IMG/VR virus record: IMGVR_UViG_3300048999_000192
Coordinates: 91,099-155,098 of that record
DNA from: a virus
Direction: 5' to 3' (one strand)
DNA length: 64,000 nucleotides
Shown: piece after piece, positions 4,505 to 41,595 of the stretch
How the letters are laid out: the number at the start of each line of letters is the position of its first letter
Position numbering within the stretch: position 1 is the stretch's first letter
The notes under the pieces: model-generated
Seen by the model: the letters and a program-made list of their open reading frames with translations, nothing else
What the model was told of the DNA's origin: nothing
Database searches by the model: none
Position numbers and translations under genes: made by a program

Positions 4505-4507
4505 CAA

Positions 4508-4557: not shown

Positions 4558-7500
4558 GCGTCCTGGGGAAGAGTCGGCTCGGTCCGACGCTGGCAAGCAG
4601 ACCGTCTGGCCGGTCGCTGTCGGCGGCGGCCTGGTGGACATGTGCGCCCACCACAAGACGATCCACGAGGGGCACTCCAACCTCGCCAACCAGATCGCCG
4701 CCCAGACCGGCCTGGCGCAGGAGGAGCACGAGGAGCTCACCCCGCACACCGGCACCTGCGTGGAGTGCAAGCGCCGCGCGGGCAAGGGCGAGCTGATGCA
4801 CTCGCTCGACTCGGCGCTGCCGACCGGATATCGCAAGAAGCAGGATCAGAGCGACCGTACGCCCCGCAGGCCGTTCGAGCCGGGCAAGACCCGCACCAAG
4901 CCCCTGGAGCCCCTCCCGCCGTCTCTGAACGCCGTGCAGGCCTCCTCCGAGGAGATGCGCCCGCTGCCGGGAGCGCTCTACCACGTCACCACGGCCCGGG
5001 ACGCGGTGCTGGCCCACGGCCTGAAGAACCGCACCGAGCTCGGCCAGCAGTACGGCCACGGCCTCGGTGGCGGCCGGGACGACACGATCTCCCTGACGAC
5101 CCACCGGCCGACGGCCGAGCACCTGCTGCACTCCCTGCACGAGTACCACGACGTGCTCAACGGCAAGATCAAGCTGGCCGACCTGAAGGAGAAGGCCCGG
5201 CAGGGAGTCGGGGCCGAGAAGCCCTATGACTACATGCTGAAGGACCACGCTGACGAGGATCTCGCCGCCGCCGACAAGGGCCGGGCGATCGAGCACCGGA
5301 TGCACGACCGCTCCGAGGTGGGCGAGGACTGGAAGCCCCTGGACGAGGGCATGCATGGCACCGGCCCCCAGGGGGAGTACCACCTCCACATGGCCTGGGA
5401 CCGGCCGCTGGACCGCTCGGAGCTGCTCCACAAGCGTGATGACGTCTACAAGAAGTTCTCCTGGGGGCGTCAGGGCGCGGGTGGTCACCCCGACCCCCTG
5501 TTCATCGCCAACGACCCCGGCGAGTTCGTCAAGAAGGACCCGGGCCAGTTCGCCCTGATGCACGTGCGCCCTCACGAGGGAGCGCACGGGATCCAGATGA
5601 ACGACCGCACCGAGGGCACCGACGCGGGGGAGTGGCGGGCGCTGTCGGGCAAGGATCTCCACGTCGTGCACCACGAGGGCCGAGAGGCCATCACGCCCCG
5701 TACGGCCGCCGCTGACCACCACGTCTTCTATCACGTCACGGACAATCCGAACTTCGAGCTGAGCACCACCCACCGGCCGCACCTGAACCTGGAGGGCGGT
5801 GAGGACGAGCACCGCGAGCCAGGCATCCACATGGCTGACCACGAGGGCATCAACCGCTGGATGGGCACCGGCGGGTACATCAGGCCGTACATGGTGGAGC
5901 TGCACGCCCACCCCGAGCTCGACGACCACCCCGACACCGAGCACGGCTTCGCCCGCGAGCGTTACGTCCCGGCCAAGCACTACGACAAGCTGAAGGTCCA
6001 CCGCGTGATCCCGCTCGACGCCTGGGACCGCGAGCAGGGCGGTTATGGCCACATGGAGCAGTCGCTGGGCTCGGAGTACGACACCGGCGCGCCCATCGCC
6101 AGCTCACACGAGGACCGGCCCTACCGGCCCCGGACGCCCTACACCGGCCCGGACGCCCGCGAGATGACACCGGAGCAGCACCAGCACCACACCGACCGCT
6201 ACGACCGGTTCATGAGCGACCGCATCAGCCGTCAGGCCGCCTCGTATCCGATCAAGTACACCCGAATGACCCAGAACGGGTACGAGGACGTCGAGGACGA
6301 GATCGAGGGCCCGCTGTTCCACGGCAGCCGCTCCAAGCGCCTGCAGCCGGGCGACATGATCACCAAGGGCCGCAAGACCAATCCCTGGGGCGACCAGGGC
6401 CCCAAGAGCCAGACGGTCCACTTCACCGTGCACCACGACACCGCGCGGGACTACGCCGACCAGGCGGGCGGCCACGTCTATGAGGTCGAGCCGACGGGGG
6501 AGTTCAAGCACGACTACTCCGGCGGCGACTTCAAGACCGCGCACCCGCTGCGCGTCGTGCGCATGGTGCCGCGTTCGGAGTGGGAGGCCTCCAAGGAGGC
6601 CAGCCGCCGTACGGCCATGACTCCGGAGCGCCGCGCCGAGATCGAGCGCATCCGGCAGGAGCGCAAGAACCGTCCCCGCCGCCCGGCCGGTCAGCCGCGC
6701 GCCGACGCGTTCTCGCACCTGTTCACGCCGATCCCCGAGCACGAGCTGGAGGAGCAGCGCCAGGCGCGTATGCCCAAGCCCGAGCCGATCAACGACAAGA
6801 CCTACTCGATCGGCGACGTCAGCAAGCACTACGAGTGGGAGGGCTTCGACCCGTACGAGATCGAGCACCTCGTGCATCACCCGGAGCACGCCCAGTTCAC
6901 CCACGAGGACGTGCCGGTGCACAGCCTGCGCCACATCACCGAGCACGGCGAGCTCGTCAAGCCGCCGTCCTACCGCGACATCGCCGACCAGGGGGATGAC
7001 GAGCAGGAGCGGCTCGGGGAGCTGGAGCGCGGGCACGACGACGGCGCCCACATCCCGCCCATCGTCGTCGTCCGCCACGGCGAGCACCACATCATCGCCG
7101 ACGGCTCCCACCGGGCGGCCATCGCGGCCGAGCGCGGCCACACCCACATCCCGGCCTTCGTCACCGAGCGGACGATCATGCCCAAGACCGGTCGCATGGG
7201 CGATGGCGGCCCCGACCCATTCGAGCGTACGGCCGCGATGCACAACCCCAACGCCAAGGCGGGGCAGGCCGAGGACGAGTGGTACCACGGCAGCCCGCAC
7301 GACTTCGACAGCTTCAGTGACACCGGGTCAAGTAACGACACCGAGGACCACGTCAACCACTGGAACGTGCTCCTGGGCAACCACTTCACTGCGACCCACA
7401 ACGTGGCGCATGACTTCAGCCTGGGCCTGCACCACGCCTCGGACGCGAACGGCAACGACGACGCCGAGGAGCCGCTGGGCCACGTCATCCACGCCAGGCT

Positions 7501-9211: not shown

Positions 9212-9378
9212 AGGTCTGGGTCCTGGTCGACTTCACCGGCCCCTCCGGCCAGCGGTACACCAAAGGCAGCCAGCTCACCCTCCCCAATGACACGCCCGAG
9301 CAGCAGGCCTACGTCTCGTCACTGATCCGCTACGGCATCGTGACGACGGCCAAGCCCGCGACAGGAGCCACCACGTGA
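9208..9378 (+). CDS. 56-aa protein coupled between polyprotein and portal; not in ORF track
   Basis: ATGA and GTGA overlaps on both sides; MKVWVLVDFTGPSGQRYTKGSQLTLP... Confidence 0.65.
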   Translation: MKVWVLVDFTGPSGQRYTKGSQLTLPNDTPEQQAYVSSLIRYGIVTTAKPATGATT

Positions 9379-11573
9379 CCGACGACTTCGCGAACCGCAT
9401 CGCCGGTGTCCAGAGCGCCATGAAGGCCAAGTCCCCGTTCTCTCGTAAGCGGGCGCAGGACACCGGCACCGGCGAGGCGGCCGAGATGCGCCGCAACCGC
9501 GCCGTGAACAAGAAGGTCGCCGCCGCAGGGTCCGGCAGCGACATCTCCTTCGCTACCGGCCGCCCGAGAGATCCCCTTTTCTACTGGAAGCAAAATAACC
9601 TTCCATATGACTTCGGTAAGCATGAGGAGCTGCGGAAGGTAAGAGCATTCTGTCGCCTTCTGTACCAGACTGACTCAATTATCGGTTCGGCGATCGACAT
9701 CTACTCCAAGTGGCCGCTGATCGGCATGGAGCTGTCGTGCAAGGACCAGAAGCTGACCGACTTCTACACCAACCTTTTCGGATTCGGTGAGGACGCCGAC
9801 GACAGCTCGCTCGACTACGAGGCCTTCCTGCCCCGCGTCGGCCGGGAGTACTGGACCGTCGGTGAGGCGTGGCCATTCGCCACGTTCAACCCGATGCTCG
9901 GTGTCTGGGAGGACGAGGAGCTCCTGCAGCCGGACGACGTCGATGTCCAGCGCAGCCCGTTCCTGAAGGACCCGAGGTTCTTCATCCGGCTGCCCGAGAC
10001 CATCCGCCGCCTGATGCAGACCCGCCAGCCAGCCTGGGAATACAACAAGCTGATGCAGGCGTATCCCGAGCTGGTCAACTACACCCACGAGAACCAGCTC
10101 ATGCCGGTCTCCAACATCCTGCTGCAGCAGATCAAGTTCGAAGGCGACACGTTCAACCCGCGCGGTGTCCCGCTGCTGACCCGCGCCATGCGCCCGGTGA
10201 TGCAGCAGGAGATGCTCAACGCGGCCATGGACGCCATCGCCGACCGGATGTACACCCCGCTCATCCTGGTCAAGCTCGGCGCGTCCGCCTCTGACCTGGG
10301 CACCAACGCCCCGTGGATCCCGACCGGTGATGACCTCGCCGATTTCGAGGAGGCGCTGGACGCGGCGCTGGCCGCCGACTTCCGCGCGCTGATCTACAAC
10401 TTCGCGATCGACATCGAGTCCGTGTTCGGCCGGGAGCAGATGCCCGACCTGACGCCGGACTTCGAACGACTCGAAGACAAGATCCTCCAGACGTTCGGCC
10501 TGTCCCGGACACTCCTGACCGGTGCCTCGGCCGGTGAGACCTACGCCGCCGACGCGCTGAACCGCGACCTGATCACCCAGCTCCTGACGCACTACCAGAA
10601 GCTGATCAAGCATCACTGGCGGCAGCGGGCGCTGGTCGTCGCCGAGGCCCAGGAACATTTCGACTATGACGTCCGCAATGGGAAGCGCTACGTCAAGATG
10701 GAAGAAATCCTCGAAGTCGACGAGGAGACCGGCGACGAGCGCATCATCGAGCAGCCCAAGCTGCTGATCCCCGACCTGCACATGCAGACGATGAACCTGC
10801 GGGACGAGGAGCAGGAGCGCCAGTTCATGGAGGCGCTGCGTCAGGGCGGCGTGCCGATCTCCATGAAGACCAGGGTCCGTAACCTCCCGATCGACCTGGA
10901 CGAGGAGATCGAGCGCAGCCAGGAGGAGGCCGTCCAGCTCATCGTCTCCGAGGCCGAGACCCGCAAGCGTGCCTACCAGGCGCTGCGCAACAACGGCCTG
11001 CCGATCCCGGACGACCTGCGCACCGAGTTCGAGGCCCTCGCCCAGCAGGCGCAGCAGCCCAGCCCGGCACTGTCGGCTGGCCAGCCGCAGATGATCCCCC
11101 AGCTCGGCCAGGACCCGCAGGCCGCCGACACGCCCAACCTCGCCCCGACGCAGCAGGACTTCCAGAACGACCCGCAGGACGAGTCCTCGGTGATGGCCCC
11201 GGTCATCCCGATGCCGATGGCTCCCCCGGGCGGAGAGGAAGAGGGCGACGCCCGGCCGGAGGAGTCCGACGAGGAGCGCGACGGCATGCCCACCTCGGCC
11301 GTGCTCTACCGGAAGGCCCAGAGCATGCGCACGGTGGCGGCCACCCGGCACGCCGACGTGGTCGAGGCCGAGCAGAAGCTGGCCCGCGAGCAGGCCTGGG
11401 CCGAGTGGGAGGTCAATCGCGTCGAGGCCGCCGCCAACGGCACCGACATGCCCGCGACGCCGCCAGAGGACCTGACCGCCTACACGGTGCCCGCCCAGAT
11501 GCGCGGCCCGATGCACATCGGCCAGCGGCGCAACCTCGATCGGGACTGGAAGGCCGCGCTCGACGACGACTGA
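9375..11573 (+). CDS. Portal protein
   Basis: 732 aa; GREYWTVGEAW, RGVPLL.RA, YTPLILVKLG motifs typical of portals; RPRDPLFYWKQNNLPYD resembles Bxz1-type portals (recall). Confidence 0.8.
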   Translation: MTDDFANRIAGVQSAMKAKSPFSRKRAQDTGTGEAAEMRRNRAVNKKVAAAGSGSDISFATGRPRDPLFYWKQNNLPYDFGKHEELRKVRAFCRLLYQTDSIIGSAIDIYSKWPLIGMELSCKDQKLTDFYTNLFGFGEDADDSSLDYEAFLPRVGREYWTVGEAWPFATFNPMLGVWEDEELLQPDDVDVQRSPFLKDPRFFIRLPETIRRLMQTRQPAWEYNKLMQAYPELVNYTHENQLMPVSNILLQQIKFEGDTFNPRGVPLLTRAMRPVMQQEMLNAAMDAIADRMYTPLILVKLGASASDLGTNAPWIPTGDDLADFEEALDAALAADFRALIYNFAIDIESVFGREQMPDLTPDFERLEDKILQTFGLSRTLLTGASAGETYAADALNRDLITQLLTHYQKLIKHHWRQRALVVAEAQEHFDYDVRNGKRYVKMEEILEVDEETGDERIIEQPKLLIPDLHMQTMNLRDEEQERQFMEALRQGGVPISMKTRVRNLPIDLDEEIERSQEEAVQLIVSEAETRKRAYQALRNNGLPIPDDLRTEFEALAQQAQQPSPALSAGQPQMIPQLGQDPQAADTPNLAPTQQDFQNDPQDESSVMAPVIPMPMAPPGGEEEGDARPEESDEERDGMPTSAVLYRKAQSMRTVAATRHADVVEAEQKLAREQAWAEWEVNRVEAAANGTDMPATPPEDLTAYTVPAQMRGPMHIGQRRNLDRDWKAALDDD

Positions 11574-11621: not shown

Positions 11622-14600
11622 ATGCGGATGCAGCGTACGGCCCGGCAGCACACCACGCTCCAGGCGACGGCAGGGGTCAACAGCGAGGACTACTTTGACT
11701 TCCGGCCCAAGCAGCGGGTGATGACGGCCGACGGGTACCCGGGCCGCGTCGAAGCCGTGCACGATGGCCCGCACGCCGGGAGCGAGGCGTACGAGGTCGT
11801 CCTGGACGGCGGCATGGGCGGTGGGCTGTACGCCTCCAGCCAGCTCCACGCGCTCGCTGACGACGCTCACACGGCCGCCGGGGACTACCCCGAGCTGGAG
11901 GACGTCCTCTCCGCCCGGCCCGACCCGGCCAAGCAGGTCGTGATGGCCAAGAAGGCCGCGCGCAAGAGGGCGTCGACCCTCCCCGACGATCACCCCGACA
12001 AGGTCTACCTCCGCTTCGGCCACTGGCCGAAGAACGAGCGTTCCGCGAATGGCGTCACGGGCCACCCAGAGGACGGGGTGAGCGTCTACGACCTTGACCA
12101 CAAGGGCGAGCCCATGGACCCGGACCCCAACCTCAGCCGGGGCCACGAGCATGACGAGTCTTGCGATCCGGACTGCGATCTCGATAGCTGGAACGAGGAC
12201 TACGGCAACGACACCCGCGAGGAGATGAACGGCCGGGTCTATCGCGCGGAGAAGGCGCGGGCCAACGGTCACGACTACCGGGGCGAGGTCGGCCACCTGG
12301 TCAAGGGCAAGATGACGGGCATCGGCCACGATGGTGAGCCGCTGCTGAACAACGTCAAGCGCGTCGGTGACTGGATCGACCACCGGCACATGTTCATCCC
12401 GACGGCGAGCCCGCACCGGCTGGCCAGGGGTGAATACGACGAGGACTACGAGCCGCCGTCGTCCAAGCTGGCCACCACCCAGAACGGCACCCGGATCGAC
12501 GGCCACGGTGAGGCCCCGCACGAGGTGCGCGCCAAGGACCCCAACGGCTACGACGCCAAGAGCACCGAGGGCGACCCGGACCCGCTCATGTCCAAGCCGC
12601 TGACCAAGAAGGACGAGGTCGGCGCGCACGGGGGCGAGCTCGGCAAGGGGATGTCCGGCGTCTCCTTCGAGGGCGCGATGTCCCCCATGCAGAAGCAGAA
12701 GATCGAGGACCGCGAGGACGCCCGGCAGGACGTGGTCGATCAGCATTCGCAGGTGAACGACGCCCGGCGCGACCGCACCGACGTCGGCGACGTCCAGCGG
12801 GTCGAGGACCCGGCGTACGCCAAGTACCTGCAGTCCCTGAACGCGCTCACCGTACGGGCCGACTGGGACGACCCGGAGCACGGCGCGGAGTGGCGGCGTC
12901 CCTGGGACGTGATGCCCGTCCACCACGACGACGGCCGCTGGCACGACCCCGAGCTGGACAAGAACTACGAGCACGACACGGCCGAGCCTGAGGCCGACGA
13001 CTCCTCCACGGCCCACGCCGCGCACCTGCACCTGCCGAACCCGGAGGAGGACCCGGACGCGCTGGCCAGCCACATGGTCGACGCACACGGCTACGACCTG
13101 GACAAGGTCAAGCAGATGATGATGGTCCACCGGCTGATGAGCGGCCAGCACGAGATGGACCACGAGACCGAGCCGGGTGGCATGGGCCTGCACCCCGACG
13201 ACTTCTCCCTCCCGCACGACCACCCGGACCGCTGGCTGGAGCACGGGTCGATCCCGGGGCCGGAGGGCGGCGTCGAGCAGGCCGGAGCCCGTGGCGACAC
13301 CGGCCACGCGCTCGACAGCAGCAGGCCGTTCGAGCTCAAGCCCTGGCATATGAACTACTCGCTGAGCTCGCTGGCCGACCCGTACGCCCTGGTCGCCTCG
13401 GCCGCCCAGGACCGGGACCTGGGATTCCAGCTCACCGCCGCCTGGACCGACGTTCGCAACAAGGCCAAGCGGATCCGGTCAGAGGGCAAGGTCAGGATCA
13501 CCCTGGCCAGTGACGGCCTGGTGGCTGGTGAGGTGCAGGGGGACCACCAGACGTATGAGACCGGCATCCAGCGCCTGCCCGGCTCCCGCCACGGCGTGGC
13601 CACCTGGAGCTGCGGCTGTAAGTGGGGCGCCTACCACTGGGGCGCCAGCGACGACTTCAGCCGCTTCGCCGGTCGGATGTGCTCTCACGCCCTGGCCCTG
13701 CAGTACGAGGCCCAGAGTCGGGGGATGTTCGGCAAGACCGTCGAGGTCGACACCTCCAAGCCGGACTGGGTGCCGCCGCGCGTGGTGGTCAAGTACAACC
13801 CCGACACCGGCCACAGCGACTTCGCCAAGTCCTCCTCACTGGTCACCCCCGAGCTGTCCCCGCTGCAGATCTTCTGCGCGTACGCGGGCAACGACGGGGA
13901 GACCGCCGACCAGATCACCTGCCTGCTGCACACGGCCGGGCTGGTCGAGGGGTACTCCAACAGCCCGTGGGGCGAGCCGATCGCCGAGGTGCCGCCCAAG
14001 CCGTACGGGGCGACCCAGCCCGCCAACAAGTGGGAGGACCCGGGCAGCGCCGGGTTCCTCGCCACGCCCGACCCCGAGGACTGGGGCGGTCTGGGGCAGA
14101 ACAACCAGATGTACTCCACGTCCAGCCTGGACGAGGCGGTGTTCGAGCCCGTCCTGGCCAGTCCCCAGGGGGCGTATGAAGATCAGGACAGTCCTGCCGA
14201 TCCGGAGGGCCTGGAAGCGACCCTGCACGACACTCCCGAGCCAGCTCTTCCCGAGACCGACGGCGGCCGGGAGGACATGGTCGGCGAGCACGCCGAGGAC
14301 CTCACGCCGGACGACCAGTCGATGATGACGGTCGGCAACCAGATGGGCGGGGCCGACGAGGTCCTGGACGAGACCCAGAACACCACCCCGCAGGACCTGG
14401 ACGACGTCGTGGCGCGCTTCCAGGCCTCCGCCGGGGCCAAGGCCATCATGGCCGACGCCGGGACTCCCAGCGGGCCTGCAGCGCGCGAGGGGGCCTCCGC
14501 CGCGCCCTCGGACGGCGACATCGCCGCCCACGCGCGCCAGGTGCTGGCCCTGAAGGCCTTCAGCCCGGCCGAGCAGGCCTCCCTGATCAACGAGGGCGTC

Positions 14601-14690
14601 GGGGAGCGCGCGGCCAACTTCGACAAGCTCGACATCGCCGGGACGCACTACGCCGACCTGGACGACGAGGACGACACATGGCTGAGCTGA
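11622..14690 (+). CDS. Second head-region polyprotein (SH3-like N-terminus, possible R-S-E ART-like module, SWIM-type Zn finger)
   Basis: YLRFG..GVSVY..GEPLL; WSCGCKW..CSHALA; RTA, HTAA, KRAS, LTAA, HTAG junctions. Confidence 0.7.
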   Translation: MRMQRTARQHTTLQATAGVNSEDYFDFRPKQRVMTADGYPGRVEAVHDGPHAGSEAYEVVLDGGMGGGLYASSQLHALADDAHTAAGDYPELEDVLSARPDPAKQVVMAKKAARKRASTLPDDHPDKVYLRFGHWPKNERSANGVTGHPEDGVSVYDLDHKGEPMDPDPNLSRGHEHDESCDPDCDLDSWNEDYGNDTREEMNGRVYRAEKARANGHDYRGEVGHLVKGKMTGIGHDGEPLLNNVKRVGDWIDHRHMFIPTASPHRLARGEYDEDYEPPSSKLATTQNGTRIDGHGEAPHEVRAKDPNGYDAKSTEGDPDPLMSKPLTKKDEVGAHGGELGKGMSGVSFEGAMSPMQKQKIEDREDARQDVVDQHSQVNDARRDRTDVGDVQRVEDPAYAKYLQSLNALTVRADWDDPEHGAEWRRPWDVMPVHHDDGRWHDPELDKNYEHDTAEPEADDSSTAHAAHLHLPNPEEDPDALASHMVDAHGYDLDKVKQMMMVHRLMSGQHEMDHETEPGGMGLHPDDFSLPHDHPDRWLEHGSIPGPEGGVEQAGARGDTGHALDSSRPFELKPWHMNYSLSSLADPYALVASAAQDRDLGFQLTAAWTDVRNKAKRIRSEGKVRITLASDGLVAGEVQGDHQTYETGIQRLPGSRHGVATWSCGCKWGAYHWGASDDFSRFAGRMCSHALALQYEAQSRGMFGKTVEVDTSKPDWVPPRVVVKYNPDTGHSDFAKSSSLVTPELSPLQIFCAYAGNDGETADQITCLLHTAGLVEGYSNSPWGEPIAEVPPKPYGATQPANKWEDPGSAGFLATPDPEDWGGLGQNNQMYSTSSLDEAVFEPVLASPQGAYEDQDSPADPEGLEATLHDTPEPALPETDGGREDMVGEHAEDLTPDDQSMMTVGNQMGGADEVLDETQNTTPQDLDDVVARFQASAGAKAIMADAGTPSGPAAREGASAAPSDGDIAAHARQVLALKAFSPAEQASLINEGVGERAANFDKLDIAGTHYADLDDEDDTWLS

Positions 14691-18837: not shown

Positions 18838-18920
18838 GTGCGTGACGTCCTGAGAGCCTTCAGGTAGCTTTGGGGGAGAGCACCGATCGACCCGCCCCCG
18901 GGTCCGGCTGTGCACCCCCA

Positions 18921-18954
18921 GAAGAGCCCCTGCCACCCCCGGCAGGGGCTCTTC
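18921..18954 (+). terminator. Hairpin terminator closing the accessory island
   Basis: GAAGAGCCCCTGCC...GGCAGGGGCTCTTC. Confidence 0.75.
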
Positions 18955-18990
18955 GCTGTGCAGGCCCCTCTCACCCCGAGGAAGAGGTGA
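18955..18990 (+). promoter_or_regulatory. Putative late promoter
   Basis: GCTGTG-N20-GAAGAGGTGA. Confidence 0.7.
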
Positions 18991-19004
18991 CAGAGGGGAA
19001 GGTC

Positions 19005-22000
19005 ATGCTGCGGAAGATCGCGACGCTGGAAACGCTGGAGGCGTACCGGGTCCCGGCGCACGCCGACGCACGCGCCCTGCGCAAGGCCGCCCACCGGGTG
19101 AGCTTCGAGTACACCCCCCGCCCGGGGTACCTCTACGTGCGTTCGCGGGCCATCAGCTCCCGGTGCAACGACAACTTCGACGAGTTCCCAGCCGAGGAGA
19201 TCGCGAAGGCCTACGCGACCTTCAAGGGCAAGCCGGTGTTCGTCAACCACCACAACGACGACCACCGGCGGATGCGTGGCGTGATCATCGACGCCGCACT
19301 GCATCAGGATCGCAACCCCGACGGCACCCCGGACACCTGGGCCGAGGTCCTGATGGAGGTCGACGCCAAGACCTTCCCCAAGCTCGCCAAGGCGATCCTG
19401 GCCGGTGAGGTCGACCGTACGAGCATGGGCTGCGACGTCCAGCTCTCGGTCTGCTCGGCGTGCGGCAACAAGGCCACCAACCCGGCGGAGTACTGCCAGC
19501 ACATCCCGGCCATGAAGGGCCAGCGCATCTTCCGCGCCACCGCCTCCGGCCAGCGCGAGGGGCACCTGGTCCGGGAGATCTGCTACGGCCTGGGCTTCTT
19601 CGAGAACTCCCTGCTCGTCGAGGAGCCCGCCGACCCCACCGCCTACTTCCTCGGCGTGGACGACCGTGGCATGAGGGCGACGGCCACTCAGCACGGCGAA
19701 GAGCCGCCCGGATGGATCAACGACGTCAAGGACCAGGCGGATGAGCTGGCGAGCCGTAACGGCCACAGCATCTCCTGGAAGTACCGAGGCGAGCCCCAGT
19801 GGAAGAGCAGCTCGGGTTACGTCGCAGGCTGGCAGGGCGAATGCGCCAACGATGGGTGTGATGCTCCGGCCAGTCAGACCAGCCGGGCTCACACGGACAA
19901 GGTCCGCACCATCAGCATCCGCGAGGACCAGCCCGGCGAGCTGAAGGACATGATGCCGCCGTTCCTGCGGCGACGCTGCAAGGGGACCACGGTGGAGTCC
20001 AGCCGGAAGACGGCGGCCGAAGATCACTGGGCCATGCCGATCTTCCAGCACTTGAAGGACGCGCACGGCCTGGATGACGATCAGATCGCCGAGGGCATGC
20101 TCGCCGCCGGAGCCGAGCCGAACATGAACCAGGGCATCAAGCTCGACCATCTGTTCCACGCCCACAAGAACCTGCACGGCGGGGACTACCAGACACCGAC
20201 CGGCGCGCAGCGGCACGGGCACACCCCCGAGGACCCGCTGATCTCCAGCGAGTTCAGGCCCTCACGCATGCAGATGAATCAGTCGGAGATCTACAACGAC
20301 AAGCCCGCCTGGGGACCGAGGAGTCTCGGCCCGTACCGGATGCGGGCGGACGAATACGGCGATTTCAAGCCTCTTCGGCAGTCGCAGAACGCCAAGACGG
20401 CCGACGTCCGCCACAACCCGCAGTACGAGGGCACCCATTGCCTGATGTGCGGCGACCCGGTTCGCTGGAATTCCAACCCGGCCAAGCAGAGCCTGCCCAG
20501 CGGGGGCTGGTACCACCACGACAGCATCAAGCGCGATCACCACGCGCTCCCGGCTGACCCGGAGGCCGTGATGAACGACGTCCCTCGCCAGGACGCCCAG
20601 CGAGACCAGATCGACGCGCAGATCCGCGAGCAGTACGGCTTCGGCCCCAAGCGGCACAAGGACATGCCGCTGGACCCCTTCGTATCCGCCTACGCGCCCG
20701 AGCTGGACGAACTCGGCCCGGTCGAGGCCGCCGCCGGTCCGAAGTACCCCGACCCGGCCGATCACCCGTTCTTCAAGAAGAACCCGATCAACCATCAGCA
20801 CATCGTCGACACCTACAACGAATCCGACGAGGGCACGCGGGCGCAGGGCAAGCGCTGGTACCCCGACGCGCACATCCTGGCCAAGGCGATCGACCCCGAG
20901 GGCAACGCGGCGCGCGGCGCTGGCGTGCTGTCGGCCTACTCCCCACAGACCTCCTGGCCGGTCAACGCCATGAACGCCGCCCGGTCCCTGCAGCGTGGCA
21001 AGGCCATGCAAAAGGGCGAGGGCCAGATCATGGCCAGTCACGCCAAGAGCGCCCAGCGCATCATCGAAGGCGAGCACCACAGCGACGTCTTCAAGGGCCC
21101 CAAGATCCGGGCGTTCGCCCACCTGATCGAGCACGGCGGTGATGACCACTCCGTCGTGGTCGACCGGCACGCGCTCTCGGTGGCCATGGGCAAGCGCGTC
21201 AGCAAGGACGACCTCGCCGACGCGCCGCTGAGCACCCCGCACTACTACGGCCACGTCGAGCGGGCCTACCAGGACGCGGCCAAGCAACTGTCCGGCCAGC
21301 ACGGTGAGACGATCCACCCGCACGAGGTGCAGGCGACCACCTGGCTGCAGCAGCAGAAGCGCAACGCGGTCGACAACGAGACCGCCCGGGGCGGCCAGGG
21401 CAAGGGCCTGATCACCCGGGACAAGAACGACTGGCGCGACTGGGAGAACTACCACCAGAAGAACCACCCGGACCTGCCCAAGAGCCTGCACACCACCAAC
21501 CCGCACGCCCCCAAGACCGAGGCGATGCGCAAGGGTGCGCCGTTCGCGGGCTATGAGGACTTCGCGGCGTGTGTCGCGGCCAACCAGGACAAGGACGACC
21601 CCGAGGCCTACTGCGGCTCGATCAAGCACAAGGTCGAGGGTGCCCAGCACACCGCCGCGCACAGGGTCTACGTCGACCAGGCCGAGGGCAGTCACGGCCG
21701 GATGGTCACCTTCAGCGGCGAGGACAAGGGCGGCTACCTCAGCCGGGGCGACGGCACGTGGATGGCCGAGAACGACAACGGCTCGGTGGTGCACGAGCAC
21801 CGCGACCACAAGCGGGCCCTGCGCGGCCTGGCCGATCACTACGGCCTGACCGGCGATCTCGACGTCGAGTACACACACGAGGGCACCGGGAACAGGAAGA
21901 ACTTCACCGTCCCGGGCAAGACGGCCGCGCTGAACGACGTCGTGGCCCCGCCCGAGGTCGACACGCTGCGGGATGAGGAGTGCCCGGTCTGCGGTGAGGT

Positions 22001-23522
22001 CGAGGTCTACGACGGGGAGCGGTGCCCGGTCTGCGGGTTCGTCGCGCCGCCGGAGATGTTCCGCGACCCGGACCTGGAGATGGCCAAGTCGATCGACCTG
22101 CGTCAGGACCAGCAGGCGCAGGCCGGTGACCCGGCGCCAGGCCAGGCCAACCCGGACGTGCCCGGTGGCGGCCTGGTCGACCCGTCCCAGCTCGGCGATG
22201 ACCCGCTGGCCGACCAGCTCCAGCATCCGGACCAGCTCGGCCCGAATGGCGAGATGGGCGAGCCCGGTACGCCAGGCGACGGCACGCCGGACCTGTTCTG
22301 CCCCGCCTGCGGCGAGGGCTTCGACGCGGGCCAGCCGATGACCACCGATGGTGACCCCGCCACGCTGGACGCCAGCGGCCCGGCCGAGGGCACCCCGTGC
22401 CCGAACTGCGGGATGTCCACCCTGCTCTCCCCGAACGACATGGAGGGCATGGGCATCGGCCCCGACGGCGAGCAGGCCGTCGCTGAGGAGGCCGAGGAGA
22501 TGGGCGACCGGCCGATGGATGCCGGAACCCCCGAAGAGGACCCGGAGGCTCCCCAGGAGGGTGAGGGGCCGCCAGAGCAGCAAGAGGAGGAGGGGCCGCC
22601 GACCGAGGAGGACGACGATTCCGACGAGCCTGCTGTGGACGAGGACGACCAGCCCTCGAAGAAGCGAGACGACAAGAATGCAAAGGGAGCGTCCATGAGC
22701 AAGTCCGTCGAGGCGGCGCTGGCGGCGAACACGGCCGCTGTCGGTAGCCTCATGCGCGAGCTGCGCATCGTCCGAGCGCAGAACGACCTGATCGCCAAGG
22801 CAGCCGGTCTGGAGGGCGAGTTCTCCGAGATCCGCCGTCAGGCCGACATCAACAACCCGGCCAGCCCCGTGCCGGACCCGGGCGAGCAGGCCCCGTCCGA
22901 GACCACGGAAGAGGCGGTCACCCCTGAGGCGGCCGACGACCCGCAGCGTCCCGGCATGACCCCGGGCTCTGTCGGCGGTGTCCCGGCCGAGCAGGTCGAC
23001 ACCCCGCTGCGCCCTGGCGTCACCCTCCCGGCGGCACCGGCCACCAACCTGGTCGACGTCACCGCGCCGGTCGCGGGCACCAACACCGGCGAGCTCTCGC
23101 CGGAGCAGACCCGCATCGAGACCGACGTGCGCGTGGGCGACCCGATGGCGAACGCGAACAGCGACGAGTCCAAGATGTTCCCGTGGACCATCGGTGCTCA
23201 GAACGCCAACCGGACCATGGCCTCCATGCGTCTGGCCGAGCTGCGCATCGCGGCCAACCTCGCCCCTGCGGGCGACCGGTTCGCGCTGGCGGCCTCGATC
23301 GAGACCGACGCCAACCTCCCGGACGCCGCCCTGGCGACCGAGATCCGCACCCTGGAGGCCGTCTCCCGTACGGCCGCCCGCCAGCCGCGCCCGACCAACC
23401 TGGTCCCGCGTGCGGCGGCCACCGAAGGCCGTACGGCCCCGAGCCTGGCTCCCCAGCCGGTCGGTGCCCCGGTCGGCGGCGGCGGGTACGACGACACGGC
23501 CGACTCCGACCTGTTCTTCTGA
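19005..23522 (+). CDS. Capsid maturation (prohead) protease fused to cargo domains, Zn ribbons and a scaffold-like tail
   Basis: NDNFDEF..FKGKPVFVNH..RTSMGC..CSACGN..YCQH protease motifs; internal HhH-glycosylase-like module; lies just upstream of capsid genes; start taken as ATG 19005. Confidence 0.8.
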   Translation: MLRKIATLETLEAYRVPAHADARALRKAAHRVSFEYTPRPGYLYVRSRAISSRCNDNFDEFPAEEIAKAYATFKGKPVFVNHHNDDHRRMRGVIIDAALHQDRNPDGTPDTWAEVLMEVDAKTFPKLAKAILAGEVDRTSMGCDVQLSVCSACGNKATNPAEYCQHIPAMKGQRIFRATASGQREGHLVREICYGLGFFENSLLVEEPADPTAYFLGVDDRGMRATATQHGEEPPGWINDVKDQADELASRNGHSISWKYRGEPQWKSSSGYVAGWQGECANDGCDAPASQTSRAHTDKVRTISIREDQPGELKDMMPPFLRRRCKGTTVESSRKTAAEDHWAMPIFQHLKDAHGLDDDQIAEGMLAAGAEPNMNQGIKLDHLFHAHKNLHGGDYQTPTGAQRHGHTPEDPLISSEFRPSRMQMNQSEIYNDKPAWGPRSLGPYRMRADEYGDFKPLRQSQNAKTADVRHNPQYEGTHCLMCGDPVRWNSNPAKQSLPSGGWYHHDSIKRDHHALPADPEAVMNDVPRQDAQRDQIDAQIREQYGFGPKRHKDMPLDPFVSAYAPELDELGPVEAAAGPKYPDPADHPFFKKNPINHQHIVDTYNESDEGTRAQGKRWYPDAHILAKAIDPEGNAARGAGVLSAYSPQTSWPVNAMNAARSLQRGKAMQKGEGQIMASHAKSAQRIIEGEHHSDVFKGPKIRAFAHLIEHGGDDHSVVVDRHALSVAMGKRVSKDDLADAPLSTPHYYGHVERAYQDAAKQLSGQHGETIHPHEVQATTWLQQQKRNAVDNETARGGQGKGLITRDKNDWRDWENYHQKNHPDLPKSLHTTNPHAPKTEAMRKGAPFAGYEDFAACVAANQDKDDPEAYCGSIKHKVEGAQHTAAHRVYVDQAEGSHGRMVTFSGEDKGGYLSRGDGTWMAENDNGSVVHEHRDHKRALRGLADHYGLTGDLDVEYTHEGTGNRKNFTVPGKTAALNDVVAPPEVDTLRDEECPVCGEVEVYDGERCPVCGFVAPPEMFRDPDLEMAKSIDLRQDQQAQAGDPAPGQANPDVPGGGLVDPSQLGDDPLADQLQHPDQLGPNGEMGEPGTPGDGTPDLFCPACGEGFDAGQPMTTDGDPATLDASGPAEGTPCPNCGMSTLLSPNDMEGMGIGPDGEQAVAEEAEEMGDRPMDAGTPEEDPEAPQEGEGPPEQQEEEGPPTEEDDDSDEPAVDEDDQPSKKRDDKNAKGASMSKSVEAALAANTAAVGSLMRELRIVRAQNDLIAKAAGLEGEFSEIRRQADINNPASPVPDPGEQAPSETTEEAVTPEAADDPQRPGMTPGSVGGVPAEQVDTPLRPGVTLPAAPATNLVDVTAPVAGTNTGELSPEQTRIETDVRVGDPMANANSDESKMFPWTIGAQNANRTMASMRLAELRIAANLAPAGDRFALAASIETDANLPDAALATEIRTLEAVSRTAARQPRPTNLVPRAAATEGRTAPSLAPQPVGAPVGGGGYDDTADSDLFF

Positions 23523-24006: not shown

Positions 24007-24546
24007 ATGCTGCGGACTCGGCTGAATAACTCGTACATCAAGCGGACGATTCGACCGCTGTACGGGTTCACTCAGGCCACGCCCCAGAGCGTCTTCCTGG
24101 ACCCGTCGTGGGATCGCTCCACGCCGATCTACCCGGGCATGGCGCTGGTCAAGACGACCGGCGACCAGGTCACGCTGTGCGGTGCAGGTTCCGGTGCGGG
24201 TGGGGTTGGCACGGCTGCCAACAACATCCCGGTCGGCCTGTGCGGCCACTACATCGGTGGCGACGGCATTGACGAGCTGCTCGACGTCGGCATGAACATG
24301 CTGGCGAACTGGGTGCTCGCCCCCGACGCTCAGTTCGAGATCCTCGCCCCGGCGTTCGACACCACGGCCGACTGGGCCGGGGCGGACAACGGCGACGGCA
24401 CCGAGGACCTGATCTACGTCGCCACGGCCGCCGGATTCATCGGGAAGCTCACGCTGACCGGTGTCCACTCGCCGACGACCGCGCCGGTGGCGCGCCTCGT
24501 CAAGGCGAACTCCGCGACCAAGATCACGATTGCGGGGGTCCGATGA
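24007..24546 (+). CDS. Capsid decoration/minor capsid protein
   Basis: Directly upstream of and coupled to the major capsid gene; IYPGM motif; GGAGG before ATG 24007. Confidence 0.65.
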   Translation: MLRTRLNNSYIKRTIRPLYGFTQATPQSVFLDPSWDRSTPIYPGMALVKTTGDQVTLCGAGSGAGGVGTAANNIPVGLCGHYIGGDGIDELLDVGMNMLANWVLAPDAQFEILAPAFDTTADWAGADNGDGTEDLIYVATAAGFIGKLTLTGVHSPTTAPVARLVKANSATKITIAGVR

Positions 24547-25538
24547 GCAGCTACCTGATGCCGTCGGCAAACGGCAGCCTGCGCGGCAAGGTCGCGAAGA
24601 AGTCTGACGACTACGTCGGCCAGATCCTGGCGCGGCGCGAGGGTGGGGCAGGCCCCCTCTCGCACCAGGCCAAGGTCCAGAAGATGGCCATGATCCTCAA
24701 CGACGAGGTCAACGGCTTCCGCCGCCTCGGCGTCGGGATGGTGGGGCCCATCCAGCTCAAGCTGCGCTACCAGGGCATCACCCGGAACGTTCTCGTCGAG
24801 GACGCCGTCACCCCCGGCACGCCGGTGGAGTACGACGTCTGGGACGACCTCGGCCAGGCGTACCTGATGTCGGGCACGGAGGGCGAAGTTCGCGTAACGC
24901 CCTTCGAGGGCAAGAGGATCCCGGTGCGCTTCTGGCGCATCGCGAGCCGCCCGGCGATCCGCAAGGAAGACCTCTACTACCTGCGGATCAACGCCGTCGA
25001 GCAGGCCCAGGACGAGACCAAGCAGGCCATCCTGAAGGCGGAAGACTCCCGCCTCCTGGTGCTCCTGCAGGCCGCCGTGACGGACTACGCGTCGCGCCCG
25101 GACCACACGGTCACGCCCAACCACAACATCACCGAGGCGTCGGGCTACCTGACCCCGGGCTCGCTGTACAGCGCGGTCGCGATGACCGACATGCACGAGC
25201 TCCAGTCGGCCCGCATCCTCATCAACCCGTTCGACTTCCGCGACCTCTACCGGTGGGACATCAACGCCACCGGCTGGGCGTTCAAGGACCGGGTGGTCGC
25301 CGGTGAGACCATCACGTCGTTCGGTGAATTCCAGATCCAAAGGTCGATCATCGTCCCCCAGGGGAAGATCTTCCTGACCCCGGAGCCCAATTTCCTGGGC
25401 GTCTTCCCGGTGCTCTACTCGCTCGATGTCGAGGAGAACCACCACGTGGAAGCGTTCTGGAAGGGATGGGTCTTCGACGAGATGGTCTCCATGGCCATTC
25501 TCAACCCGCGCGGAATCGCGACCATCACCAAGTCCTGA
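24543..25538 (+). CDS. Major capsid protein (HK97 fold, Bxz1-like)
   Basis: 331 aa; MVGPIQLKLRYQGITRNVL, AEDSRLL, MAILNPRGI; followed by terminator. Confidence 0.85.
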   Translation: MSSYLMPSANGSLRGKVAKKSDDYVGQILARREGGAGPLSHQAKVQKMAMILNDEVNGFRRLGVGMVGPIQLKLRYQGITRNVLVEDAVTPGTPVEYDVWDDLGQAYLMSGTEGEVRVTPFEGKRIPVRFWRIASRPAIRKEDLYYLRINAVEQAQDETKQAILKAEDSRLLVLLQAAVTDYASRPDHTVTPNHNITEASGYLTPGSLYSAVAMTDMHELQSARILINPFDFRDLYRWDINATGWAFKDRVVAGETITSFGEFQIQRSIIVPQGKIFLTPEPNFLGVFPVLYSLDVEENHHVEAFWKGWVFDEMVSMAILNPRGIATITKS

Positions 25539-36693: not shown

Positions 36694-37395
36694 ATGAGGA
36701 TCTCCTATGTCGGCGGAGATGCGGGGTGGGGCAACAACACCGTCACCTTCGACGTCTCTACGGACTTCGTTGTCTGGCCGACCGTGCAGCCAGGCGATTT
36801 CGCGCTGCTCGCGTGGAACTACCAGAACACGGCGACACCGACCACCCCGACGGGGTTCTCGCAGATCGACTACCAGATTCAGGGCAGCGAGGGGGCTTCG
36901 GTCTACGGGAAGGTCTGCACGGGTAGTGAGAGCGGAAATATCGTCCTTGTGAACTCGACGAGCATTCAGAACAAACAGGGTGCAGTGCTCGCCGTCTATC
37001 GGGGCACCCATAAGACATCGCCGGTACTGGCGGCAGATTTCACCGAGGCGGGTGGGTCTGTAACGGCGAATACCCATGCCGCCCCGTCGGAGACGCTCAA
37101 CGTATCGGACTGTGCTGTAGCGACGTTCTTTGCTGAGAGGGCTTCTCCATCATCCACGGTAGTGACTCCGCCGTCGGGATACACGACACGTCAATCTAAT
37201 GCTGGGCAACTGGTCGGTAGCGGCAGTTCCTCTATCGCCCTGGCGGACGATGGTCTGGCCACCAATCGAGCGAGCGGAGCCTCCGTCTCACCAGGCAACT
37301 GGGTGGGCAACCAGAGCGTGTTCAGTGGAGTCTGGATGGCCTGGACGATTTTGCTCCGCCCGGCCGAATACGAGGGATGGGGAGTGGACCTGTGA
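36694..37395 (+). CDS. Fibre tip/receptor-binding-like protein, atypical codon usage
   Basis: Beta-rich; many A/T-ending codons. Confidence 0.65.
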   Translation: MRISYVGGDAGWGNNTVTFDVSTDFVVWPTVQPGDFALLAWNYQNTATPTTPTGFSQIDYQIQGSEGASVYGKVCTGSESGNIVLVNSTSIQNKQGAVLAVYRGTHKTSPVLAADFTEAGGSVTANTHAAPSETLNVSDCAVATFFAERASPSSTVVTPPSGYTTRQSNAGQLVGSGSSSIALADDGLATNRASGASVSPGNWVGNQSVFSGVWMAWTILLRPAEYEGWGVDL

Positions 37396-38063
37396 GCCTG
37401 CTCTGGAAGTCGGCGGCCTGGTGGAACACCGACCCGGACGACGTGGATGAGTATGAAGAGGGCCTGCGCGACCCGGAGGAGACCGGTAAGGAGCGCGGGC
37501 AGCGCTACGTGTCCCACGTGGTCGACCGGCACAACGTGAGCCGTACGCAGGCTCAGACGGCCCTGCGGCACGTGATGCGCCACCATGACAGCGACGCGAT
37601 CTCTCAGTCGCCGATGGACTACGGCTTCGCCAGCGCGGGCAACCAGATGGGCCACTACTCCCCGGCGATGACGCGCAAGCTGATGGACCCCAAGACCTGG
37701 GAGGGCCGCCCGGTCCAGCAGGTCCCGCTGGACCAGCCGCTCCATGCCAGCCAGAACTTCATCCGTCCCAAGTCCATCGCGCACAACCTCTTCCACCCCG
37801 GCAAGCGGCAGCCGGACTACCAAGACGAGGCCGTCGGCGACCCCGACCACGACCCCGACTGGGACCGGGACGAGGAGGAGTCGAGCGAGGGCGAGTCGCC
37901 GCAGGAGCGCGAACTCCACAAGAACGTCTTCTTCATGAAGCGCAAGAGCGGGCGGATGGAGGTCGTGGACGGGCATCACCGGGTGGCCACGGACATGCTG
38001 CTCGGCAAGTCGCACACCCCTGGCATCGTGATCCACGAGCACGAGCTCAACCAAGGAAGCTAG
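37392..38063 (+). CDS. ParB/Srx-like protein with MSLLW leader
   Basis: GTG 37392 overlaps previous TGA; LHASQ..VVDGHHRV. Confidence 0.75.
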   Translation: MSLLWKSAAWWNTDPDDVDEYEEGLRDPEETGKERGQRYVSHVVDRHNVSRTQAQTALRHVMRHHDSDAISQSPMDYGFASAGNQMGHYSPAMTRKLMDPKTWEGRPVQQVPLDQPLHASQNFIRPKSIAHNLFHPGKRQPDYQDEAVGDPDHDPDWDRDEEESSEGESPQERELHKNVFFMKRKSGRMEVVDGHHRVATDMLLGKSHTPGIVIHEHELNQGS

Positions 38064-38071
38064 GAGTCGCC

Positions 38072-38299
38072 GTGACCGTCCTCAACCCGAGCGAACTGGA
38101 GCTCCGGGGCGGCTACCATCCGCCGTCCTCGCCGGAGAAGGCCAAGTACCACTCCGACATCCGGGAGGTCTATCTCGCGACCGCCCGCGTGCTGAACGAG
38201 ATGCTGCCGCCGTGCCGGGAGTCCGAGCTCGCGCTGGAGCACCTGCTCGACTACTCGCTGATGCTGGCCAACGCCGCAGCCGCCCGGAGGGTGCCATGA
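38072..38299 (+). CDS. Acb2/Tad1-like helical hairpin protein (candidate cyclic-nucleotide sponge)
   Basis: YHPP..IRE..LPPCRESELALEHL..LMLANAAAAR resembles the family pattern. Confidence 0.6.
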   Translation: MTVLNPSELELRGGYHPPSSPEKAKYHSDIREVYLATARVLNEMLPPCRESELALEHLLDYSLMLANAAAARRVP

Positions 38300-38631
38300 G
38301 CCTGCTCTGGGTCCACGCCAACACCGGCACGCGTATGGTGCCGGTGCACGAGGTCATGGGTTACCAGCCGACCGACTTCCCCACGTGGAAGGAGGTCCAC
38401 GACAACTTCTACTGGGACCACCCCACGATGAAGAACTTCGTCAAGCACATCGGCGAGCACGGGGTGAAGAAGCCCATCCGGGTGGACTACGAGAACGACC
38501 CGCCGACGGTCGAGAACGGCCATACCCGCGCGCTGGCGGCGCAGAAGGCGGGCCTGAGCCACATCCCGGTCAAGCAGTACGAGTGGCCAGGGGACATCGA
38601 CGAGGACGACCGGGAGGGGTACGGGGGCTGA
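38296..38631 (+). CDS. ParB/Srx-like protein with MSLLW leader
   Basis: ATG 38296; IGEHGVKKPI..VENGHTRALAA..HIPV. Confidence 0.75.
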   Translation: MSLLWVHANTGTRMVPVHEVMGYQPTDFPTWKEVHDNFYWDHPTMKNFVKHIGEHGVKKPIRVDYENDPPTVENGHTRALAAQKAGLSHIPVKQYEWPGDIDEDDREGYGG

Positions 38632-38634: not shown

Positions 38635-39333
38635 ATGCTGAGCGAGACCGCTGAGCTCCGGATCTCCGAAACTCCGGACCGGCTGATCATGCTGGTGCCG
38701 AACCTCAGCGGCGCCAGGGCGCGCTCGATCGCTAACGCGGCCGTACGGGAGGCCCGGCGCAAGATGCCCAAGCTGAGCGGGCAGGCGGCCAGCCGGATCT
38801 TCCCTATCTACGGCAAGGGCTACTTCGGCATCGGCTTCCTGGACTCCTACGTCTGGTTCCAGGAGAACGGCATCCGCCCGTTCACCATGTACAACCTGCA
38901 GGGCAAGACCATCCCGATGTGGGTCAACGACCCGACCGGCACGCAGCGTCAGCGCAATCCCAAGGCCAAGACCCGCGTCACCATGTCCGGCGTCACGCAG
39001 GTGCTGATCTTCCGCCGGGTCGCCCAGGTCGGCCAGACCAAGACGGTGAAGCGCAGGAGCCGTCTGACGGGCGCGGTGGAGTCGGTCTCGGTGCCAGCCT
39101 CCTACCCGGGCGCGCCAGGACGCATCGGCCGCCGTGAGGCCGCCGCGCCCCTCACCACGCCGGGCAAGACCGGCGGGCAGATCGCCGCCGGGAACGTCGG
39201 CGTACGGTGGCGGCACCCTGGCCTCGCCCCGCGCAAATTCTTGAACAACAGCCTGACGATGGCCGCACAATGGCACGGTATTCTGCCAATTCGGATTTAT
39301 GTGGCAGATAGGAATTGGAGGGCGAGGTTCTGA
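38635..39333 (+). CDS. Basic neck/tail-completion protein
   Basis: Position; ENGIRPF..WRHPGL.PRKFL motifs. Confidence 0.6.
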   Translation: MLSETAELRISETPDRLIMLVPNLSGARARSIANAAVREARRKMPKLSGQAASRIFPIYGKGYFGIGFLDSYVWFQENGIRPFTMYNLQGKTIPMWVNDPTGTQRQRNPKAKTRVTMSGVTQVLIFRRVAQVGQTKTVKRRSRLTGAVESVSVPASYPGAPGRIGRREAAAPLTTPGKTGGQIAAGNVGVRWRHPGLAPRKFLNNSLTMAAQWHGILPIRIYVADRNWRARF

Positions 39334-40062: not shown

Positions 40063-41595
40063 GTGTCCGAATTGGTAGATTTCACGCGGTACCAGCCTCC
40101 GGGCGTGTACGTCAGCGATGTCTCGCAGCCGCTCGTCAGCAATGCGGGCGTCCCGCAGGCCATCGCCTGCATCGTGGGGCCCGCGCTGGGCTCCACCACG
40201 GCGACCGAGTCGGTGGTGATCGACGCCGACGAGGCCGCGACGCTGACGGCACGCGGCATCTTCACCACGCCGGTGAGCGGCCCACCGGCCATCGCGGCCC
40301 CCGTGGTCAAGAAGCTCGACGGCACCCTGCTGGCGGTCGACACCGACTATGAGTTCTCCGTGGACGCCTCCGCCCCAGGCGGCGCCGCCAACGCGGTGAC
40401 CTCGATCGTCCGGGTGGCCGACTCGACGAACGTCGCCGACGGCGACACCGTCTCGATCACCTACAGCTACGCCGACGCCGACTACTACCAGCCCAAGGTG
40501 TTCGAGGACTACGCCTCGCTGGTCTCGACGTACGGCCTGCCGATGACGTCCACGCCCCCGAGCAACCCCAATGACAGCCAGGTGGTCTCGCCGCTGGCGA
40601 TGGGCGCGCTGATGGCCTTCCAGAACGGGGCCACCCAGCTCATCACCGTGGCGCTGAGCCCCTCAGACGGCACCCTGCAGCAGCAGTTCAACGCGGCGTA
40701 CGGCCGGATCGCGACGAACTACAACACCGCGATCATCACGCCGGTCTTCGTGGACGACCTCACCGTCAACACCGGCACCGTCGCCCAGCTCACCACGACG
40801 CTCGCGCAGGACCTGGAGTCCCACTGCGTGAACGCCTCGGCCGACGGATACCCGCGCATCGGAATCTTCGGCGCCTCGCGCAACTACAGCGAGACCGACC
40901 AGGCCTACGACGCCTTCGCCGCCGCGATCGACAACAAGCGGATCATGCTGGCGTACCCGAACCGGCTGCAGGTCTTCAACGGCTCGACGAATCAAATCAC
41001 GGAGGTCGGCGGCTGTTTCCTGGCCGCCGCCATGGCGGGCCTGCTGAGCTCCCTGCCGACCAACCGGGGCCTGACCAAGCAGACGATCGTCGGCTTCGCC
41101 GGGCTGTCTGCGCCGATCGCCCAGAAGATGACCAAGCTCTTCCGGGACACCCTGAGCCGCTCGGGCGTCGCGGTGGTCGAGGTCAACCGGCTGAGCCAGA
41201 TGATCGTGCGCCACGGCGTGACCACCGACATGACCTCGCTGACCACCCGCGAGGTCAGCCTGGTGCGGATCGCCGACGGCCTCTTCGAGCTCGTGCAGCT
41301 CGGCATGGAGGGCGCGCAGCTCATCGGCGAGGCGATCACCGCCGACACGGTCGTCCAGGTCAAGGGGGCCCTGTCCTCGCTCCTGGAGCAGGCCAAGATC
41401 TCCGAGCTGATCGTTGACTATGCCGACCTGCAGGTCCGGCAGCAGATCTACCCGAGCGGTGACCCCTCGGTCATCGACTGCAAGTTCTCGTACCAGCCTG
41501 CTGTGCCCCTGAACTACATCACCGTGCAGTTCTCGGTGGACCTGCAGTCAGGCGACGTCGGCGACACCACCGCGCTGGCGGCGGCGAGCGCCTGA
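40063..41595 (+). CDS. Tail sheath protein
   Basis: YQPPGVYV N-terminus; VRHGVTT..REVSLVR; YQPAVPLNYITVQF C-terminus. Confidence 0.9.
   Translation: MSELVDFTRYQPPGVYVSDVSQPLVSNAGVPQAIACIVGPALGSTTATESVVIDADEAATLTARGIFTTPVSGPPAIAAPVVKKLDGTLLAVDTDYEFSVDASAPGGAANAVTSIVRVADSTNVADGDTVSITYSYADADYYQPKVFEDYASLVSTYGLPMTSTPPSNPNDSQVVSPLAMGALMAFQNGATQLITVALSPSDGTLQQQFNAAYGRIATNYNTAIITPVFVDDLTVNTGTVAQLTTTLAQDLESHCVNASADGYPRIGIFGASRNYSETDQAYDAFAAAIDNKRIMLAYPNRLQVFNGSTNQITEVGGCFLAAAMAGLLSSLPTNRGLTKQTIVGFAGLSAPIAQKMTKLFRDTLSRSGVAVVEVNRLSQMIVRHGVTTDMTSLTTREVSLVRIADGLFELVQLGMEGAQLIGEAITADTVVQVKGALSSLLEQAKISELIVDYADLQVRQQIYPSGDPSVIDCKFSYQPAVPLNYITVQFSVDLQSGDVGDTTALAAASA

Follow-up and report, generated by a model that had tools for sequence, protein, structure and literature searches.

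Why should two dissimilar genes in the late operon of an actinobacteriophage begin with the same short peptide, and what might that peptide do? The window analysed here is the final 64 kb (64,000 nucleotides, positions 91,099 to 155,098) of viral record IMGVR_UViG_3300048999_000192 (155,098 bp, 67% G+C); it contains late structural genes and comes from a soil actinophage of the Bxz1-like lineage. Two of its genes, here termed gene 1 and gene 2, share the N-terminal leader MSLLWxxA. A phage opens its contest with host defences through the proteins that it packages and injects, and to our knowledge the addressing of such cargo to the head is understood experimentally for few phages only, such as T4 and P1. 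We find that the leader is conserved, is selected as a peptide, is separable from the protein behind it, occurs at the N-terminus only, and is confined to accessory genes of the late operon. By analogy with known systems, it may be a portable N-terminal address peptide that loads late-made effectors into the virion, a reading to which we give roughly an even chance. An initial annotation of the window had already proposed a packaging tag; the leader proves to be portable, conserved as a peptide, separable and used once per chain, whereas the functional core of the proposal is drawn from analogy and context. The features that carry the argument are as follows.

37392..38063, plus strand: gene 1, 223 aa, with the leader, a helical N-domain and a ParB/sulfiredoxin (Srx)-like C-domain with DGHHR
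37392..37415, plus strand: gene-1 leader, codons 1-8, (GTG)M-S-L-L-W-K-S-A
37393..37406, plus strand: 14-nt repeat TGAGCCTGCTCTGG, copy 1 (upstream stop TGA plus codons 2-5)
38296..38631, plus strand: gene 2, 111 aa, with the leader and one ParB-N/Srx-fold domain (NGHTR)
38296..38319, plus strand: gene-2 leader, codons 1-8, M-S-L-L-W-V-H-A
38297..38310, plus strand: 14-nt repeat TGAGCCTGCTCTGG, copy 2

Gene 1 starts at 37392 with a GTG that runs into the TGA ending the preceding gene (GTGA), a Shine-Dalgarno-like GGGAG lies 7-8 nt 5' of this GTG, and the product begins MSLLWKSAAW. Gene 2 starts at an ATG at 38296 that overlaps the stop of a 75-aa gene (ATGA), and its product begins MSLLWVHANT. 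Database homologues of both genes start at MSLLW, which supports both start codons; the corrected starts on which the initial annotation relied are borne out, and the objection that other start codons might be used falls away on the N-termini of the homologues. The shared leader and its shared DNA were likewise confirmed. Both in the window and across all 155,098 bp of the genome, TGAGCCTGCTCTGG has exactly two copies, those at these starts, and shuffles gave a chance expectation of 0.04 matches at one mismatch or fewer. Repeated exact 14-mers are frequent (1157 in the genome), so it is the placement of the repeat at two start codons that is the real observation. SLL[WFY] follows a start codon in no further open reading frame of the whole genome.

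Conservation in relatives extends well beyond these two genes. For gene 1 the databases yielded 60 homologues with identities of 31-76%, most of which begin MSLLWxxA; the most distant (31%) still begins MSLLWVRA, and in these proteins the folded part starts right behind the leader at (A/M)xWW. Homologues also turned up in Streptomyces assemblies, on contigs of about 152 kb. In the gene-2 family (seven members in all) the leader is present in six of the six homologues found, with S2, L4, W5 and A8 invariant, and the linker that comes next is rich in indels. Related loci were retrieved with a profile of the conserved gene that follows gene 2.

38635..39333, plus strand: backbone gene D, conserved, phrog_2819, adjoining the leader genes in all relatives

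Among the 59 viral loci so obtained, 26 carry one to four leader genes, which all lie on the coding strand and adjoin gene D on one side or the other, and outside the flanks of gene D only two weak look-alikes were seen. One contig has five consecutive leader genes. The complete relatives have one or two only, all at the gene D locus, and loci without leader genes have no cassettes between the backbone genes.

The codons of the leader indicate what is being conserved. In 34 non-identical leader genes of the related contigs, Leu3 is encoded by CTG, CTC, TTG or CTT, Leu4 by five codons and Ala8 by four; leader codons other than those for Met and Trp differ synonymously across genomes while the residues stay fixed, which argues that selection acts on the leader peptide. 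At 31 of the 34 starts the initiation codon overlaps a stop (ATGA or GTGA). This dictates A as the first base of codon 2 (Ser AGC/AGT or Thr ACN) and also accounts for the DNA identity of the two leader copies in the window. The five letters MSLLW are not diagnostic by themselves, since an unrelated 311-aa family from phages of about 66% G+C (L024, L027, L033 and about 25 other loci) begins MSLLWRRKVLL (MSLLWRRKVLLAKLETTYG...), evidently by chance. This family was among the matches of a pattern scan of viral contigs for ATGAGCCTGCT[CG]TGG, which were chiefly chance or unrelated ones. Literature searches gave nothing relevant for MSLLW and no usable data for Bxz1 virion proteomics.

The leader heads proteins of many kinds. 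With the first 12 residues removed, the 34 non-identical leader proteins were compared by BLAST and split into at least eight separate families: gene-1-like; gene-2-like; a family of about 250 aa with a domain of the Arr-ms rifampin-ADP-ribosyltransferase type (PF12120, 33.3 bits vs a cutoff of 25); and five singletons, two of them ADP-ribosyltransferase (ART)-like and without a ParB motif. A short N-terminal peptide common to otherwise separate families, the mark of the T4-type capsid targeting sequence (CTS) class, was therefore found in at least eight families, and the search of related proteomes for ^MSLL[WF]..A that the initial annotation had suggested was positive on 26 of the 59 contigs. 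The objection that the leader might occur on no other genes is answered by the relatives; in this genome it occurs nowhere else. A DGHHR-type ParB/Srx module is present in most leader proteins; a ParB motif is missing from at least three (two ART-like proteins of L013, 97 aa and 165 aa long, and the singletons of L156 and L159). Effector domains of this sort lie among late virion genes and also occur fused in multi-domain proteins: modules of the same kinds are fused in P0032, P0068 and L010, and are embedded in a polyprotein of L012.

The assignment of both window genes to the ParB/Srx fold, made earlier from the sequence, was upheld. Gene 2 matches ParB-like PHROG families (E 6.6e-7), and in a Foldseek search its AlphaFold2 model aligned with the N-terminal CTPase domains of ParB (E 2.2e-4, prob 1.00) and with sulfiredoxin; against Pfam ParB_N it scores 15.7 bits, under the 26.3 cutoff. 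NGHTR is invariant in its family, so that gene 2 combines the ParB N-domain/sulfiredoxin fold with a GxxR motif. Gene 1 gave no match in Pfam and PHROG searches. Its model is confident (predicted local distance difference test score, pLDDT, 89), and the top Foldseek matches of its C-terminal half are all Srx, ParB or SbnI, at weak values (E 0.024, prob 0.99, template-modelling score to target 0.54). In its homologues DGHH is invariant and is followed by a nearly invariant Arg, as are HNxFH within HNLFHPG and G-PD within GDPD invariant; gene 1 thus has the fold and the GxxR motif as well, the fold by way of weak matches. The bodies are rich in His, as had been noted: 7.2% in each gene vs 2.9% in the proteome, with 8.4% in the 1551-aa polyprotein at 4556-9211.

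Structure models and natural variants both point to a leader that can be detached. The AlphaFold2 models have pLDDT <50 for residues 1-6 of gene 1 and 1-9 of gene 2 and are otherwise confident. Some homologues begin exactly at the predicted mature end (MAAWW, MPWY) or have a four-residue stub before the domain (MLTS-MAAWW). In two- or three-module ParB-like fusions (L009, L010, P0026, P0068, P0069), and in the fusion of a gene-2-like to a gene-1-like module (P0032), MSLLW stands only at the N-terminus, and the inner boundaries read KEA|MAWW, REA|MAWF, KQA|MAWW and KTS|MPWW. In the 1799-aa polyprotein of L012 (1329-6728), RRTA|A and RKTA|S delimit a module of the gene-1 type; inside the polyprotein, an Arg/Lys-Thr-Ala junction motif stands where the leader would. 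This polyprotein has about ten modules with [KRH]-[TE]-A separators, among them ART-like, ParB-like and gene-1-like ones and, judged by eye only, an apparent Nudix-type segment. A stand-alone gene-1-like leader protein in L013 (5001-5675) ends ...QLARTA and abuts the ATGA of the next MSLLW gene, as though a polyprotein had been split at a junction.

The end of the leader resembles these junctions in part. Of 84 non-redundant leaders, 68 (81%) have Ala8 and 51% have x[TSEQ]A, and the residue following Ala8 is Ala or Met in 63%. Within residues 6-22, [KRH][TSEQ]A occurs in 32% of leaders, as against 2.5% for a stretch of equal length elsewhere in these proteins. In seven large proteins of the phage, [KRH]TA is 6.2-fold enriched (31 in 7971 residues vs 23 in 36,726), with a P value that is inflated because the set was picked by motif count; the commonest residue after the motif is Ala. 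In many insertion-bearing homologues of gene 1, the domain is immediately preceded by a second motif, a canonical one, as in ...APKTA|MPWW and ...ARRTA|GWW. The junction-like context that the initial annotation saw at Ala8 in both window genes holds in part only: KSA|A of gene 1 is a near match to the [KRH]-T-A junction, and VHA|N of gene 2 has no more than the Ala in common with it. A complex prediction of gene-1 residues 1-30 with the capsid protein, the protease domain and a scaffold segment scored 0.00, which speaks neither for nor against docking.

Further N-termini of these phages merit description in their own right. Large head-region proteins (window 11622-14690, and proteins at window-relative -3710 and -1851) have, from predicted starts, the N-termini MRMQRTA-, ...RRLRTA- and ...SHSRTA-; the Arg-Thr-Ala endings suggest short propeptides of other kinds. 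A 424-aa acidic low-complexity protein (422-1696), which matched no family, starts MTTDQFASLWTEAS, a leader-like sequence (SLW-TEA), has an SRKTA|V motif inside, and overlaps with its start the stop of an upstream 758-aa protein. In the cultured Mycobacterium phage Napoleon13 (Bixzunavirus, L023), the adjacent and otherwise dissimilar gp101 (4131-6035; 634 aa with DUF7178) and gp102 (6028-7329; 433 aa) share only an N-terminal RI(T/V)TAREQFEML(L/Q)PW(Y)REA, with 20 of 29 residues identical (E 5e-6). This shared stretch ends in a junction-like Arg-Glu-Ala motif and may be another kind of leader within the mycobacteriophage branch.

The setting of the locus is a late head-tail operon, in which the leader genes have late structural genes of unassigned function on one side and, a short way downstream, the tail sheath gene on the other. 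The capsid protein is about 60% identical to its counterparts in cluster-C (Bixzunavirus, Bxz1-like) mycobacteriophages. The remaining features are these.

9375-11573: portal
18870-23522: 1550-aa protease-cargo-scaffold protein with an N-terminal prohead-protease domain
19005..19859, plus strand: prohead-protease domain of the 1550-aa protein (PHROG head maturation protease, E 5e-22), a candidate for the leader-removing enzyme
24543-25538: major capsid protein
36694..37395, plus strand: upstream late gene, 233 aa, its stop overlapping the gene-1 start
38072..38299, plus strand: Acb2/Tad1-hairpin-like gene, 75 aa, without the leader, between the leader genes
40063-41595: tail sheath gene

The 233-aa upstream gene has a 50% identical homologue in L158, and there, too, a leader gene follows. 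The 75-aa gene matches PF24729 (E 1.7e-10, 41.4 bits vs a cutoff of 27) and has no homologue in the 78 related loci fetched, and so looks like a recent insertion, in this single genome, between the leader genes. Pfam gave no match for the protease, the scaffold or the neighbouring genes, and sequence searches among solved structures, with the protease domain and with gene D, gave none either. The role of the protease domain in leader removal is a putative one.

How, then, might the leader work? It would mark stand-alone or short-fusion effectors, ParB/Srx-like or ADP-ribosyltransferase-like, that are made late. The late production of enzymes that act on host DNA or protein is understandable chiefly if the next cell receives them, and one disordered leader per chain, on late effectors and interchangeable with junctions, fits a virion address tag that is trimmed. 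The hydrophobic core of Leu3, Leu/Val4 and Trp5 would dock on a component of the prohead; the prohead protease would then remove the tag at Ala8, often x-Thr-Ala followed by Ala or Met, by the rule that apparently also separates the modules of the giant polyproteins. Tagged effectors would thereby reach the virion, most likely the prohead interior, and would enter the next host with the DNA. Packaging, a receptor and a cut after Ala8 are all proposed here by analogy, and the compartment is presumably the head interior rather than the neck or the tail lumen. A bolder version, which we consider possible but doubtful, is that a tag of 5-8 residues, with its Leu-Leu-Trp core and Ala end, would suffice for bringing any protein into a Bxz1-like actinobacteriophage head and would be clipped by the prohead protease. 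Together with the Arg/Lys-Thr-Ala code, it would form a two-part grammar, one address per chain and one cut site per module, for fusing, splitting and swapping injected effectors.

Several observations weigh against a packaging tag. This genome has only two leader genes, and the sequences that were counted are related to one another rather than independent; since most leader proteins have a ParB/Srx-like domain, part of the sharing may reflect common descent. Some gene-1 homologues do not have the leader (MLTS-, MAAWW-), although erroneous gene calls may account for some of those starts. One subgroup of relatives (L169, L170, L172, L173, L177 and L180, at about 6700 or 3079) has Arr-like and gene-2-like bodies with a variant leader, MTLVWSEI, that has neither Ala8, the proposed cut site, nor a Thr-Ala motif nearby. 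The full [KRH][TSEQ]A is found at positions 6-8 in only 21% of the 84 leaders, gene 2 reads VHA there, and the specificity of the prohead protease for [KRH]TA is itself presumptive. The giant polyproteins, also presumed cargo, do not begin MSLLW, so the tag is not a general entry route. Searches of cultured phage genomes by blastn and tblastn, with the region, gene 1 and gene 2, gave no match, and the gene-1 profile found no relative among GTDB representative genomes.

Other explanations of the shared leader must be set against these data. The conserved unit could be the nucleic acid, as a translational-coupling or initiation element or as a patch of recombination homology, with the 14-nt repeats flanking an inserted 904-bp cassette. 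The stop overlaps at 31 of the 34 starts, which fix A as the first base of codon 2, agree with this, as does the frequent DNA identity of leader copies within one genome; moreover, the order in L004 is the upstream gene, GTGAGCCTGCTCTGG and a gene-2 homologue, without gene 1 and the Acb2-like gene, and resembles an 'empty site' between two repeats. However, the synonymous variation of the leader codons across genomes, at constant residues, and the retention of the peptide where no stop overlaps (ATGTCCCTTCTGTGG) make such an origin highly improbable. Recombination at a leader can arise as a side effect where the leader is a peptide tag, as happens in the internal-protein locus of T4, and on the synonymous variation we read the cassette exchange of the L004 type in this way. 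An indel or recombination scar, considered on account of L004 as the principal reading of the repeats, was rejected because both families and many genomes retain MSLLW through synonymous codon changes.

The shared N-terminus might instead have been inherited without any role in addressing, from one ParB/Srx-type ancestor that underwent duplications and domain swaps. The DGHHR-type module of most leader proteins, the ParB/Srx fold common to gene 1 and gene 2, and the tandem arrangement that local duplication predicts would all follow; yet the leader surpasses the bodies by far in conservation, with invariant residues at 31% overall identity, it is unstructured and is followed by an indel-rich linker, it heads proteins without the ParB motif, and internal copies of the same modules do not have it. 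We therefore consider mere inheritance quite improbable. It is unlikely, too, that the leader serves a function other than packaging, whether as a stability or degradation signal, in localisation in the host, in the binding of a partner, or as an autoinhibitory propeptide that silences nuclease or ART effectors in the producing cell. A short, hydrophobic, disordered peptide at the head of potentially toxic enzyme domains would suit such functions, and conservation alone is silent on the binding partner. Yet each toxic module would need its own inhibitor, whereas only the first carries the leader, and neither the restriction to one late structural locus nor the replacement of the leader by junction motifs in polyproteins would be explained.

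Should the leader indeed be an address for virion loading, the injected effectors of the Bxz1-like group could be read directly from their genomes, and the movement of ParB-like and ADP-ribosyltransferase-like modules between solo, fused and polyprotein forms would be explained. Phages of Streptomyces and related hosts could, moreover, be loaded with proteins by means of so compact a handle. The two-part grammar, if true, would be a ready protein-delivery handle for Streptomyces phages and also, by way of the leader that is their own, for phages of mycobacteria.

The cargo itself resembles the polyvalent proteins, for which packaging and injection have been predicted, as has packaging for solo ParB domains beside virion genes (Iyer et al. 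2017, PMC5512222): in both, ParB/Srx and ART modules occur solo or fused among late virion genes. For the processing of polyvalent proteins, that study proposed zincin-like metallopeptidase domains, and it describes no shared N-terminal tag (PMC5512222). Here, a leader and an Ala-ending junction code are seen. In phage P1, whose Dar system includes a processed ParB-domain protein, DdrB (PMC5512222), the N-terminal 30 residues of DarB suffice to direct a reporter into the capsid (PMC9024508). An N-terminal segment there takes an anti-restriction-type effector into the head, as is proposed here for the leader proteins; the P1 signal is about 30 residues long and belongs to one protein, whereas the leader is short and is found on many, and the two have no sequence relation.

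The closest parallel is T4, in which the CTS is the sole conserved part of otherwise diverse internal proteins (PMC3012670) and is carried by IPI, IPII and IPIII, with a leader on Alt as well (PMC3012670; Mullaney & Black 1996 cited there). Like the CTS, MSLLWxxA is a short N-terminal peptide common to otherwise diverse proteins in swappable cassettes, and in some of the leaders its end resembles the presumptive sites of the phage's own prohead protease; the internal proteins of T4 are defence-related, and the ADP-ribosyltransferase type among the leader cargo recalls Alt. The differences are equally plain. MSLLWxxA and MKTYQEFIAE have no sequence similarity, the predicted cut is after Ala rather than after Glu as with the gp21-type protease of T4, and the leader belongs to a Bxz1-like actinophage lineage with a different protease and only 1-5 tagged genes per genome. 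On this comparison MSLLWxxA is best regarded as an analogue, not a homologue, of the T4 CTS: a new leader sequence from the Bxz1-like actinophage lineage, in which our literature search found none described before.

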